Part shown: in pieces, positions 3,420-11,978 of the stretch
How positions within the stretch are numbered: the first letter of the stretch is position 1
Layout of the letters: each line of letters starts with the position of its first letter
Virus record (IMG/VR): IMGVR_UViG_3300035696_000004
Coordinates: 155,773 to 219,772 of that record
Strand: one strand, 5' to 3'
Origin: a virus
Taxonomy: Duplodnaviria; Caudoviricetes
DNA length: 64,000 nucleotides
Made by a program: the position numbers and the translations under genes
Notes under the pieces: generated by a model
Database searches by the model: none
Told to the model about the DNA's origin: nothing
The model's input: only the letters and a program-made list of their open reading frames with translations

Positions 3420-4127
3420 TTAGTTCGGTTCAACAGCCTCGGCGAAACCCAGGCTGGCGGCGGCCGTAGCAAAATCCTGACAGTCCGCGAAACCTTCCTT
3501 GCCAAATGTCCGGGCATTGCTGCAAACCAGCTTTGCGGCCGAACCCGCTTCATTGTTGGTCATCGCCAGACCGAGGAACCCGTGATCACCCGTTTTCCGG
3601 ACCAGGTAAATCGAGGTCTGGAATTGGCTCGTTTTGGTAGCGATGATTTCCACCGGTGTGCAGGGCTCGTACCCCGACGTATCGGATGCGTAACCGAACT
3701 GACACGTCGTTGCTTCGACGTATTCTGCCGGGAACTTTTCGCGGTGGAGGGCCAGGAGAGCCGGTTTGACGAGGGTCTTCACGGACGACATCGTGGTTTC
3801 GAACACCGAGATGAACGCACCGATGCTGTCGATGATCGGTTGGGAAACGCTGATCACACCGGACCAGAACGACAGGTACCGGATGGTTTCTTTTTCCGGG
3901 ATCTTGATCGAGATCTGGCTATTGGCATACTCGATTACAATCGGCTCCTGACCGGGCTTGCAGGTCGGCGTGTAGATGCCTTTGGTGAGGAGTTCATTCA
4001 CGATTTCGAAGGCATCGTCAGCGATGTCAACATCGAAATCAAAACCGCGCAGGATGTCGGTCAGCTGGCAACCAATCTTGCGGGCTGCTTCAAATTCGGA
4101 GAGTTCGATAACGATTTTCATGATCAT
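3420..4127 (-). CDS. Hypothetical protein (early)
   Basis: 235-aa ORF, SD aaggaa, promoter motif ~70 nt upstream. Confidence 0.7.
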   Translation of the reverse strand: MIMKIVIELSEFEAARKIGCQLTDILRGFDFDVDIADDAFEIVNELLTKGIYTPTCKPGQEPIVIEYANSQISIKIPEKETIRYLSFWSGVISVSQPIIDSIGAFISVFETTMSSVKTLVKPALLALHREKFPAEYVEATTCQFGYASDTSGYEPCTPVEIIATKTSQFQTSIYLVRKTGDHGFLGLAMTNNEAGSAAKLVCSNARTFGKEGFADCQDFATAAASLGFAEAVEPN

Positions 4128-4195
4128 TCCTTTATGCGTTTATTAGACAACAAGAAAGACAGGATAGCATGATTGCTACTCAATGTCAATCCAGT

Positions 4196-4218
4196 TATAT
4201 AGGTTTGAGATATTCTGG
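4196..4218 (-). promoter_or_regulatory. Putative phage early promoter
   Basis: Gene strand ccagaatatctcaaacctatata; copy of the 8-fold motif. Confidence 0.65.
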
Positions 4219-4226
4219 AATCGCGA

Positions 4227-4733
4227 TTAAACGTCCACGGTTTCTGCCTCTTCGCAGAGCAGGTCAATAATGCGTTTGACTGTACTACGATGCAACGGCA
4301 TGAGGCGTTCCAGAAGCTCGAGCGCTTCTCTGGGGACGAACCCTTTCCAGCGAGCGGCCAGCGCCTTGAGTTCTTCATTCATGGCAAATTCGCTTTCCGC
4401 AAAGATCTTCAGAAGGGCCTTCGATTCCAGCACCATCTTCAGAAACAGCCCGATCCGATCGTCGAACTTATGCGGGAGTTTTTCTCGCCATGTGGCGATG
4501 GCCTGGTGTTCTGTCATTCCCAGACCTTGGAAGTATGCCAACTTCCCGCGACGGACCAAATCCCGGGTTCGGGCATTGGTTGGAACCAAGATTCGGCGTT
4601 CTTCGTAATCGTAGTACGTCACGATGATCCGTGAATCCCAATCGGTATCCGGGGAAAAGGCTTTGTTGAGATCCGGAACAAACCCAAAGTTCCGGATGGC
4701 GATGATATCGAGATCTTGTTGTGAATAATACAT
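4227..4733 (-). CDS. Hypothetical protein
   Basis: 168-aa ORF in a co-directional cluster. Confidence 0.6.
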   Translation of the reverse strand: MYYSQQDLDIIAIRNFGFVPDLNKAFSPDTDWDSRIIVTYYDYEERRILVPTNARTRDLVRRGKLAYFQGLGMTEHQAIATWREKLPHKFDDRIGLFLKMVLESKALLKIFAESEFAMNEELKALAARWKGFVPREALELLERLMPLHRSTVKRIIDLLCEEAETVDV

Positions 4734-4789
4734 GGAGTCTCTTCCTTGTCATTAAACCGCCCTCCGCAAAAGAGGGCGGTCAGAGGGTT

Positions 4790-5335
4790 TTAGTTCAGAC
4801 GACTATCAGCCCAGTACCACAGGGTCGGCCACTTTCCGCTATCGCAGATTTTCTTGATGGTGCGCGGGTCGTGATGCGAACTCCGTACCGCTTCCATGAC
4901 ACTCGGGTAGTAAATGCCGTTGACGACCACCGGCTGCTTTACGGTGGCTTTACCCGGGCCCGCAGGGTTGGGTGCAAACTTCGGGTCGCGGCCATTATTG
5001 ATAGCACGCGGTGCGTCTTTCGGAGGGGTATCGAGCTCGAGGGCGGATTTCCTGCCAGTCTTCTTGGACACCTTTTCCTTCAGTTCCTCGGTCGGTTCCT
5101 GGGTAGCTTCGGTTTTCGGTTTCACCTTCCTGACCTTCTTGGGTTTCTTTTCACCCGCTTCCGGTTCAGGCGGCATGTCTTTCGGTGTAGCCGGAAAGAG
5201 TTCGCTCTTCGTGAATCCGTAGGTCGCGATGGCGGCCAGCGTATTCTTCAGCGCTTGCTTGCGCTTGGCTTCGATGAGTTCGCCAACAAAGATGTGGAGC
5301 CCTTGGAGCTGTTCGAGAGTGTATTTCTTCAACAT
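4790..5335 (-). CDS. H-NS-like oligomerisation domain fused to a NUMOD1/IENR1-like DNA-binding domain
   Basis: N-term YTLEQLQGL...IEAKRKQALKNTLAAIATYGFTKSELF resembles the H-NS family N-terminus; Lys/Pro/Glu-rich linker; C-term PVVVNGIYYPSVMEAVR. Confidence 0.5.
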   Translation of the reverse strand: MLKKYTLEQLQGLHIFVGELIEAKRKQALKNTLAAIATYGFTKSELFPATPKDMPPEPEAGEKKPKKVRKVKPKTEATQEPTEELKEKVSKKTGRKSALELDTPPKDAPRAINNGRDPKFAPNPAGPGKATVKQPVVVNGIYYPSVMEAVRSSHHDPRTIKKICDSGKWPTLWYWADSRLN

Positions 5336-5410
5336 ACGCGTATTCCTTTTTAAAAGATATTAAACAGTACAACACATTACGACATGATTATTATTCAATG
5401 TCACCTGAGT

Positions 5411-5433
5411 TATATAGGTTTGAAATATTCTAG
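5411..5433 (-). promoter_or_regulatory. Putative phage early promoter
   Basis: Gene strand ctagaatatttcaaacctatata, ~75 nt upstream of ATG 5335. Confidence 0.7.
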
Positions 5434-5499
5434 AATCGTTTATTTTGACAAAGAAAAAATAGGGGCATAAACCCCCGCTCCTTGAGGAGCGGGGGAGCC

Positions 5500-6009
5500 T
5501 TATGTCTCATAGTGAATCCAGTCTGCTTCTTTGTTGAGGATGAGAGCTTCTGTTTCTTGCCACGTTTGCTCAAGGAACTTGGCAACGGCGTTGACAGATC
5601 GAAAGCGAATGCCGTTGAGAATAACCGCACGCATCTTACGACGAGAGGGTGTGGATGCGGTCGATTCGGATTTCTGTGGTTTGATGGCTTTCCATCCAGG
5701 CCCTAGTTGAAGAAACTTCTTTCTTACAGGGGCTTCAGGTGGACGATATTCGGCTTTTGCAGGGGGCGTCTTCTCGTTGAAGATCGCTTCAAGTAAAGAA
5801 TCCACCGTATTTTCACCGGTGGTTGATGCGGTCGTGATGGAGAGAACCTCTTCACCCTTTTCTTCAGGTGCCGGAAAGAACGCGCTGATGAATTCGGATC
5901 TCATGGATTCGAGCTTCATTTCTGCGCCAGCAATCAACGAACGAGCATAGCGCAAATCATTAGCGAGTTGGCAAAAATCATTCACGAGTGCTTCTTTGGT
6001 CTTAGCCAC
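5500..6009 (-). CDS. Hypothetical protein with C-terminal NUMOD1-like DNA-binding motif
   Basis: GTG start with SD aaggaa; C-term AVILNGIRFRSVNAVAKFL resembles the C-terminus of the neighbouring 4790..5335 protein. Confidence 0.55.
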   Translation of the reverse strand: MAKTKEALVNDFCQLANDLRYARSLIAGAEMKLESMRSEFISAFFPAPEEKGEEVLSITTASTTGENTVDSLLEAIFNEKTPPAKAEYRPPEAPVRKKFLQLGPGWKAIKPQKSESTASTPSRRKMRAVILNGIRFRSVNAVAKFLEQTWQETEALILNKEADWIHYET

Positions 6010-10600: not shown

Positions 10601-11978
10601 CCTTTTGTCCACTTGATCCGTTGTGTCTCCCGACACGCTCTATCAAGCCGGTGCGATTCCTGGCACCCGCCTCAGGCTTTCCCTGAGGAGCAGACTATAT
10701 CTTCACCTCCAGCATGACCTGGTAAGGTGCTTCCTATTTCCCCGGAGATGGCTATCTCCCGTGCACCTAAGCACTGACCCACTTGAGTGGTACACCGTGG
10801 TAAGCGGTTAGTCGTTGAACTCCTCCCATTCTCGCTGTCGTAGCGAGGGCAGGGGTTAGCTGCGGATTACCCAATCTTTGCCTCTTTTACCGTACCTGAA
10901 TGATTAGTTCAGCCCTCACGATCATTTCTAATCATGAGTTGGTGTGCAAAGCTCTCAGGGACTTCCCGTCAATTAAAGAAGGTTTCATTAACTATTTCTA
11001 ATTAATGAGGCGGGTTGTGAAAATCCATCCATCCAGATTCTTGTCGGTATCTAATCGACTTAAAATACTGGAACGATCGACATTAAAATGCCTAGCACAT
11101 TGAGTCAACGATCCAAACTCCATTGTTTTCCCGCCTTTACTAGCGCACAGCGGGATTGCGCTGGTGCCCTTCAGACCGCGATCGTAGCGATACGGTGTTT
11201 CTGAATAGCTGTCTCGAACGTTGAATTCTTTATCGGGATAAATCTCATTCCCGTACTGCGCTAACACAGGGATTGATTTTCCTGGAGCCCCGTATAACTG
11301 GTGGCGCTTCAGAAGTTCCCTTGTCGAATAAACTTCCTCTATGGAACCGTTCGAATCTTTCACTGTAACCATGTACCTCGACGGGGGTACCAGTTCAGTT
11401 CTATTTTCATAAAACCACGGTTCAGGGTCATTCGCACACCGGAACTCATACTTCCCGGCGACTAACTTCCCAAACATTTTTGGTCGCAGATCTACTATTC
11501 TGACGTCTTTCCCTAATCCCATGAATTCAGCAGCTTGAGTTATCGAGTGGAAATAGGACACTTCTCCTGTGAAGTAATCTCTAACTCTACACGGGATGTT
11601 GTCCCGTCTCAACCCGCTATTGACAGCATGGTAATTATTCCCGGAGTAGCTTGTCCATTCGAGGTTTTCGTACCAGTTATTTCCTGGATGAGCGTCGATA
11701 TGGTTCACAACGGTAAAATTATCAGGATCGGGATTATAAACCCATGCCAAAGCGACTGCTCTATGCACGGGCAAGGTCTCTGTCTTGGATCCTCTGAAAG
11801 TATCCACGGCGAGATAGCCATTAAGAAGATAAGGGGTGAGCATTATCTTTCGTTCTACTGAAACGATTGTGCCCACTCTGTCCACGGCATAATGTTCATA
11901 TCCCGGAATTATCCGAAACATTTCATCTTCCATTCATGCTCCTTTCAACTAAAGGGATGAACGGACTTTCACAATTCC
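10601..11978 (-). mobile_element. Group I intron with HNH ORF in the nvRNAP beta gene
   Basis: P aattgacgggaa, Q aatccgcagc, R gttcaacgacta, S aagatatagtc; 5' exon ends in U with a U-G pair in a P1-like hairpin; ends in G; splicing restores GFKLTDTAGG|KGVI (RpoB GDK..GRHGNKGVI). Confidence 0.88.
10998..11933 (-). CDS. Intron-encoded HNH homing endonuclease (NUMOD4-HNH-NUMOD1 type)
   Basis: IIPGYEHYAVDRVG; VHRAVALAWV..VVNHIDAHPGNNWYENLEW; C-terminal EFGSLTQCARHFNV helix-turn-helix. Confidence 0.88.
   Translation of the reverse strand: MEDEMFRIIPGYEHYAVDRVGTIVSVERKIMLTPYLLNGYLAVDTFRGSKTETLPVHRAVALAWVYNPDPDNFTVVNHIDAHPGNNWYENLEWTSYSGNNYHAVNSGLRRDNIPCRVRDYFTGEVSYFHSITQAAEFMGLGKDVRIVDLRPKMFGKLVAGKYEFRCANDPEPWFYENRTELVPPSRYMVTVKDSNGSIEEVYSTRELLKRHQLYGAPGKSIPVLAQYGNEIYPDKEFNVRDSYSETPYRYDRGLKGTSAIPLCASKGGKTMEFGSLTQCARHFNVDRSSILSRLDTDKNLDGWIFTTRLIN

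Follow-up and report, generated by a model that had tools for sequence, protein, structure and literature searches.

A jumbo phage gene that probably joins a short-type H-NS N-terminal domain to a homing-endonuclease-type DNA-binding module

The gene described here occupies positions 4790–5335 on the minus strand of a 64-kb stretch of viral DNA (the window), which is the final part of a complete phage record of 219,772 bp with direct terminal repeats. Its coding sequence runs from an ATG at 5335–5333 to a TAA at 4792–4790 and specifies a protein of 181 aa. A ribosome-binding site, AAGGA, was read directly at 5344–5348 on the same strand, 8 nt upstream of the ATG. An ORF of 210 aa overlaps the gene on the opposite strand; we take the minus-strand frame to be the coding one because of the profile matches of its product, which are presented below. 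Terminator-like hairpins lie on either side of the gene, both on the minus strand. The first (5472–5495), a strong one with a 10-bp GC stem, a TCAA loop, and a T-rich tail, belongs to the upstream gene and separates it from the transcription unit of ORF 4790–5335. The second (4757–4779), also read directly, begins 11 nt past the stop codon of ORF 4790–5335 and consists of an 8-bp GC stem (CCGCCCTC/GAGGGCGG), a 7-nt loop, and TTT. Because this T-tract is short, read-through into the following ORF is possible.

That ORF (4227–4733, minus strand, 168 aa) lies directly downstream behind the hairpin and may be co-transcribed with ORF 4790–5335. It is an orphan that gave only a weak match to phrog_15009, a family of unknown function, and no homologues in a search of 5.8 billion proteins. 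The upstream gene (5500–6009, minus strand, 169 aa) is likewise an orphan, and its layout resembles that of ORF 4790–5335, with an N-terminal helix, an acidic, proline-containing linker, and the C-terminal sequence AVILNGIRFRSVNAVAK. When the genome was compared with a profile of NUMOD1-type repeats, the C-terminus of this protein ranked second (E = 0.0017), over the C-terminal 18 residues only, and the protein may be a second nuclease-free one of the NUMOD1 type. The N-terminus of this protein is not H-NS-like (hhalign probability of 0.2% against A2, an alignment of short H-NS N-terminal domains introduced below). Paralogy between ORF 5500–6009 and ORF 4790–5335 was considered, and was supported neither by BLASTP nor over the full length of the two proteins.

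A 27-nt promoter motif, TTCTAGAATATTTCAAACCTATATAAC, is present at 5409–5435 (minus strand), ending 74 nt upstream of the ATG. When up to seven mismatches were allowed, 12 copies of the motif were counted in the genome, every one of them on the minus strand; shuffled genomes contained none. Copies within the window are located at 5409–5435, 4194–4220, 18210, 27346, 37825, 40203, and 56448, and five more lie upstream of it. The consensus of this promoter family is TTCTAGAATATTTCAAAC(C/A)TATAT(A/T/C)AC, and the copy at ORF 4790–5335 is perfect. The genes that follow the motif include those for chimallin and PhuZ, a phrog_3209 gene, and several orphans. A scan for sigma-70-type promoters gave weak matches only. 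Conserved AT-rich motifs serve as early promoters of the virion RNA polymerase (RNAP) in jumbo phages (PMC7598289), and by analogy the 27-nt motif probably represents the consensus of the early promoters that the virion RNAP of this phage reads. The initial annotation had placed an early promoter directly upstream of the gene. A promoter-like motif common to the chimallin and PhuZ genes is indeed present there, whereas we only infer early expression, from that shared motif and from the published jumbo phage promoter motifs.

The phage encodes a nuclear-shell protein (chimallin, phrog_4795), a PhuZ tubulin (phrog_4733), and subunits of a multisubunit RNA polymerase. These genes mark it as a jumbo phage that is nucleus-forming and phiKZ-like. 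As judged from its SF2 helicase, which is encoded next to the region studied, its nearest cultured relative is Burkholderia phage FLC9 (41.7% identity), and further near cultured relatives are Ralstonia phages FLC1-1B, RP12, and RSF1. The genes located 3′ of the helicase gene in FLC9 and FLC1-1B are unrelated to the region of ORF 4790–5335. Because the genes downstream of the helicase differ in this way, we place ORF 4790–5335 in a variable accessory region. The genome also contains HNH intron endonucleases with NUMOD modules. ORF 10998–11933 (minus strand, 311 aa) carries an I-HmuI NUMOD-like module (PF22083, E = 1.8e-7) and NUMOD1 modules, so that DNA-binding modules of homing endonucleases are at hand in this genome as raw material. 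A profile built from nine repeats (see below) detected no closeness between the modules of that ORF and the module of ORF 4790–5335.

Searches with the 181-aa protein indicated that it is an orphan. Pfam, PHROGs, and NCBIfam yielded nothing meaningful, whether queried with the entire protein or with each of its halves, and a sequence search of the PDB gave no match at E ≤ 10. A word-indexed search of 5.8 billion proteins returned only the protein itself. An exhaustive phmmer search of 1.84 billion cluster representatives detected no full-length homologue and no protein with both of the domains described below, although it did find two relatives that match the C-terminus only. Nothing relevant was obtained by tblastn, either for the protein in 50,697 phage records or for its N-terminal domain in 72,556 plasmids, and viral contigs contained no related loci when queried with the protein or the adjacent helicase. 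Within the phage genome itself, phmmer detected no paralogue, and the gene is absent from the nearest relatives. When the whole protein was modeled by AF2 from its single sequence, the model was poor outside the N-terminal helix, with three weak helices toward the C-terminus. The anatomy of the protein is very probably threefold, that is, an H-NS-type N-terminal domain, a basic linker, and a hairpin-helix-turn-helix (HTH) module of the I-TevI/NUMOD1 type.

The N-terminal part (residues 1–51; 5183–5335, minus strand) was assigned by profile and structure comparison to the N-terminal dimerisation/oligomerisation domain of the short-type H-NS family. In the single-sequence AF2 model, it comprises a long helix at residues 7–39 (pLDDT 78–89) and a short helix at residues 43–46 within the motif YGFTKSELF. 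Residues 1–55 matched no Pfam family. To our knowledge, the short H-NS proteins known from alpha- and betaproteobacteria have no N-terminal domain model in Pfam, and for this reason we built our own. When PF00816, the H-NS C-terminal domain, was searched for in 121 genomes sampled from the whole phylum to which E. coli belongs, 62 matches were obtained in 32 genomes. We read 45 of these 62 genes, and 29 of them had a short N-terminal domain, defined as a long helix followed by a short helix with G[FY]s..EL; these 29 domains were aligned as A2. The C-terminal domain of E. coli H-NS was also used as a query against a protein database and plasmids, but it retrieved nearly exclusively enterobacterial forms and was not the source of A2.

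Alignment of residues 1–55 with A2 by hhalign gave a probability of 94.4% and an E-value of 8.5e-8, with query residues 2–51 aligned to template positions 5–58. In the controls, the probability rose no higher than 5.6% for the N-termini of 350 other ORFs of the phage and 8.3% for 250 shuffled versions of the query. When the 29 domains were turned into an HMM, ORF 4790–5335 ranked first among the 1217 ORFs of the phage (19.0 bits, E = 9.7e-5; the runner-up had E = 0.68). Residues 1–50 alone scored 22.8 bits, compared with maxima of 11.6 bits for 20,000 shuffles and 11.2 bits for 11,007 natural windows of 50 residues. In the six-frame translation of the phage genome, ORF 4790–5335 was the sole match to the A2 profile (E = 1.4e-4); the same profile had no match in the FLC9 genome. 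Among the structural neighbors of residues 1–52 in the ESM Atlas, short H-NS clusters accounted for three of the nine rows, including the top one. The H-NS-like pattern that the initial annotation had recognized in this region is thus borne out. The family meant there needs to be narrowed, in that the domain is of the short type, with a long helix and a G[FY]s..EL helix, and not of the enterobacterial type, since a search of the whole phage genome with PF22470 (Histone_HNS_N) was negative at E ≤ 10.

Both near-invariant residues of the family, an L and a G, are retained in the phage protein. The hhalign alignment contains one gap of four residues, which falls in the long helix, so that all 29 family members have a helix longer by four residues; the shortening could alter partner specificity or register. 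The best bacterial N-terminal domains share about 30–40% identity with the phage domain over 35–45 residues (13/37 to 17/44), and the closest ones include multicopy Bv3F-like domains (L110, L126) of a single 7.1-Mb genome. Judged from these comparisons, the kinship of the N-terminal domain with short H-NS proteins is real, and it is not recent.

The bacterial set also included H-NS family genes with unusual architectures (L111, L108, and L127). One of these is a 371-aa open frame with the H-NS C-terminal domain at its end, and another is predicted to encode a 174-aa protein in which a Bv3F-like N-terminal domain is followed by two tandem PF00816 domains.

The phage protein does not have the C-terminal domain of H-NS. 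The motif W[ST]G.GR.P (TW[ST]GxGRxP in its longer form) is absent from the sequence, as the initial annotation had stated, and PF00816 has no match anywhere in the phage genome at E ≤ 1. The N-terminal domain is followed by a linker rich in Pro, Lys, and Glu (residues 52–132; 4940–5182, minus strand), which is predicted to be disordered (pLDDT mostly below 55). The stretch measured, residues 48–132 (85 aa), has a pI of 9.8, contains 20 K/R and 15 P residues, and includes KKPKKVRKVKPK. In being basic and flexible this linker resembles that of H-NS, but it is several times longer than the linkers of the H-NS proteins that we collected (about 15–25 residues).

The protein ends in a single module of the I-TevI_DNA-bd/NUMOD1 type (residues 133–181, with the fold at 133–179; 4793–4939, minus strand), assigned by profile and structure. 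Its elements are, in order, a beta-hairpin (VVVNGIYY), a helix-turn-helix, and a tail (KWPTLWYW). The sole relatives found by phmmer among the 1.84 billion cluster representatives, P0002 and P0003, matched residues 128–173 (E = 1.0e-5 and 1.6e-5, respectively). P0003 is a 464-aa GIY-YIG-like protein, and P0002 has 232 aa and no nuclease; both contain tandem repeats that match the Pfam families I-TevI_DNA-bd (PF20987, E = 6.3e-20) and NUMOD1 (PF07453, E = 5.5e-10). By BLASTP, ORF 4790–5335 aligned to four different repeats of P0003, with up to 43% identity over 40 residues. An HMM of nine repeats from P0002 and P0003 matched residues 135–171 with E = 1.5e-12, the best score among the 1217 phage ORFs. 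In the ESM Atlas, the neighbors of residues ~116–180 were HNH, GIY-YIG, I-TevI_DNA-bd, and NUMOD1 clusters.

AF2 modeling of the last 61 residues from a small alignment (A3) predicted a beta-hairpin and two helices with pLDDT 70–83 (strands 16–18 and 21–23 and helices 26–33 and 37–46 in the numbering of that model). When this model was compared with 48,161 PDB chains by VIA-align, I-TevI (1t2t_A, Z = 5.2) and I-HmuI (1u3e_M, Z = 4.5) came out on top, the next chain having Z = 3.4; these Z values are modest. Foldseek against the PDB also ranked the DNA-binding domain of I-TevI (1i3j_A) first, at a level that was not significant. The Pfam models PF20987, PF07453, and PF22083 had no direct match at E ≤ 10 in the whole protein or in residues 126–181, and the evidence for membership is for this reason transitive and structural. 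The repeat profile, the phmmer relatives, and the structural matches to I-TevI and I-HmuI uphold the proposed NUMOD1/IENR1-like nature of the C-terminus, and profile evidence and predicted structure agree that it is one homing-endonuclease-type hairpin-HTH module. Profile, shuffle, and structural tests bear out both domain assignments, and the N-terminus is not a generic coiled coil devoid of an H-NS match.

P0002, which is metagenomic, consists of three tandem I-TevI_DNA-bd/NUMOD1-type repeats and is nuclease-free, and it represents another such use of the module.

No GIY-YIG or HNH nuclease domain was found in ORF 4790–5335 by Pfam, PHROG, and NCBIfam searches, the rest of the protein outside the HTH being the H-NS-type helix and the predicted disordered linker. 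Such a protein might also be what is left of a free-standing homing-endonuclease gene, decayed or domesticated after loss of its nuclease. The likeness to H-NS would then be that of a convergent amphipathic helix, and the protein would have little or no function or would just occupy or protect a homing site. Several observations are in keeping with this history, namely that one of the two sole relatives is a GIY-YIG-like endonuclease with multiple repeats and the other a repeat protein lacking a nuclease, that HNH intron endonucleases with NUMOD modules reside in the same genome, that the gene forms a cassette of its own within a variable region, and that the adjacent ORF 5500–6009 also ends in a weak NUMOD1-like module. 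However, the N-terminal match extends over all 50 residues and includes the conserved L and G, at 94% against less than 9% in the controls, and the gene has an intact frame, a ribosome-binding site, and an exact copy of the 27-nt motif. In addition, the Pfam search revealed no trace of nuclease motifs. Because of the full-length N-terminal match and the intact expression signals, we consider a decayed remnant quite improbable.

A layout with an assembly domain, a long basic tether, and an HTH is that of a DNA-binding protein that self-associates and is multivalent. We tentatively regard ORF 4790–5335 as encoding an early, oligomerising chimeric protein of the nucleoid-associated type that most likely acts on the host nucleoid, a reading that seems to us nearly as apt to be right as wrong. 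The protein would be made early in infection, its N-terminal domain would drive the formation of dimers or higher oligomers, and an oligomer would present at least two HTH modules, along with the basic linker, to DNA. The DNA of chimalliviruses is enclosed and shielded early in infection. Because the phage DNA is shielded in this way and the gene is apparently early, the host nucleoid is favored as the target and would be the most likely site of action. There, the protein could co-assemble with a short H-NS-type silencer of the host via the domain that they have in common, so that the filaments would be mixed and their DNA-binding specificity changed, or it could bind and bridge host DNA alone. 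The initial annotation had suggested that it hetero-oligomerises with host silencers of the H-NS type and disables or redirects them. By analogy, hetero-oligomerisation with host H-NS is plausible. The full scenario, in which the oligomerisation domain of a host silencer was captured and combined with a homing-endonuclease module, and early copolymerisation poisons or re-targets host H-NS-type filaments, appears rather doubtful to us.

The region between the promoter motif and the gene bears on a different target. A conserved 18-nt element, TGACATTGAATAATAATC (also written TGACATTGAGTAGTAATC and TGACATTGAgTAgtAATC), lies at 5386–5403 on the minus strand and starts 5 nt after the promoter motif. 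At up to three mismatches, the genome contains five copies, compared with 0.3 expected, and all of them are on the minus strand. Two are in the window (5386–5403 and 4171–4188), and the others lie outside it, at window-relative positions −7027, −50950, and −86678. Only some copies of the 27-nt motif are followed by the element, which stands there at a fixed spacing, in a few accessory operons. Its 5′ end, (T/G)TGACA, resembles a sigma-70 −35 box. The element could be an operator, a 5′-UTR element, or a second promoter.

As the main alternative, ORF 4790–5335 may encode a regulator directed at the phage itself. The H-NS-type domain would then serve for self-association only, and the protein would be a dimeric or oligomeric HTH transcription factor or a phage chromatin protein on phage DNA. 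The 18-nt element would be one candidate target, through which it would regulate its own gene and a small regulon with a few accessory early promoters. The element is indeed present at the fixed spacing at ORF 4790–5335, at ORF 3420–4127, and at at least three other sites, and one HTH per chain combined with an oligomerisation domain is a typical repressor layout. A precedent is the DNA-binding domain of I-TevI, the top structural match, which represses the promoter of I-TevI at an operator, as the title of PDB 1T2T states. A self-associating DNA-binding protein of the phage fits the data equally well. On the other hand, the element is not palindromic across its copies and nothing ties it to the ORF 4790–5335 protein, and it may instead be an RNA element or one recognized by an RNA polymerase. 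Moreover, a simple coiled coil would be enough for dimerisation, so that this explanation leaves the specifically H-NS-like character of the domain unaccounted for. We judge a regulator of this kind to be somewhat unlikely, and in what follows we return to the preferred reading, a chimeric protein acting on the host nucleoid.

Silencers of the H-NS type are modular, consisting of an oligomerisation domain and a DNA reader, and H-NS-like silencers with different DNA readers are represented by MvaT, Lsr2, and Rok. Mobile elements counter them with a copy of the whole protein, with a truncated form (H-NST), or with unrelated binders (gp5.5, Mip, MotB). If the proposed action on the host nucleoid is true, a natural chimera in which the assembly domain is kept and the DNA reader exchanged would be a fourth strategy of this sort, and the H-NS N-terminal domain would be portable, a module open to new uses by phages. 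The chimera would also offer a simple handle on the question of whether chimalliviruses, despite the shielding of their own DNA, manipulate the chromatin of the host at an early stage. Should the more specific copolymerisation scenario hold, the protein would embody a strategy of counter-silencing or nucleoid takeover, that is, a natural, domain-swapped reprogramming of bacterial chromatin. Separately from these possibilities, the profile matches and the structural model suggest that an I-TevI-type module has been reused, free of a nuclease, as a general DNA-binding domain.

The closest known counterparts of the N-terminal half are the short-type H-NS proteins of Pseudomonadota in our collection (loci L085–L131, about 100–125 aa), which we take to be Bv3F/BpH3/HvrA-like. 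Like them, the phage protein has a long helix and then a G[FY]s..EL helix, continues into a flexible linker of basic character, and carries its DNA-binding domain at the C-terminus. It differs in that a homing-endonuclease HTH takes the place of the PF00816 domain with its TW[ST]GxGRxP motif, in that the linker has about 85 instead of 15–25 residues and the long helix is four residues shorter, and in that it is carried by a lytic jumbo phage.

Among horizontally carried proteins, H-NST and other truncated H-NS homologues of genomic islands (Williamson & Free, 2005, as cited in PMC7074111) retain the oligomerisation domain only and act as dominant-negative antagonists of H-NS by heteromerisation. 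Like H-NST, the phage protein is horizontally carried and has an H-NS oligomerisation domain; however, the domain of H-NST is of the enterobacterial type and that of the phage protein of the short type, and H-NST has no separate DNA-binding domain, whereas the phage protein possesses a full alternative DNA-binding module. Phages are known to encode H-NS homologues (PMC7074111). The H-NS of EPV1, a phage of a betaproteobacterium, has been proposed to manipulate host silencing (Skennerton, 2011, as cited in PMC7074111). According to that review, the EPV1 protein is a homologue of H-NS itself, whereas ORF 4790–5335 keeps only the N-terminal domain.

Other phage proteins reach the same silencers by other means. 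MotB of T4 (PMC6070864, PMC7827196) and Mip of LUZ24 (PMC8501957) act on H-NS or MvaT, with changes in silencing or in the structure of the nucleoid, and MotB, an early product, is in addition a DNA-binding protein. We found no sequence or domain similarity between either of them and ORF 4790–5335, and neither MotB nor Mip reuses the silencer's own oligomerisation domain.

As for the C-terminal half, the combination of a beta-hairpin and an HTH is common to the phage protein, I-TevI (1I3J, 1T2T; PF20987), I-HmuI (1U3E; PF22083), and NUMOD1 (PF07453). In contrast to these, the phage protein has no nuclease domain, zinc finger, or NUMOD3 helix, and it bears a single module on an oligomerisation domain rather than a tandem array. 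In the papers on H-NS homologues that we consulted, no such chimera of H-NS and a homing endonuclease is described. Each of the two domains is already known separately, and their combination is a new variation on known parts.
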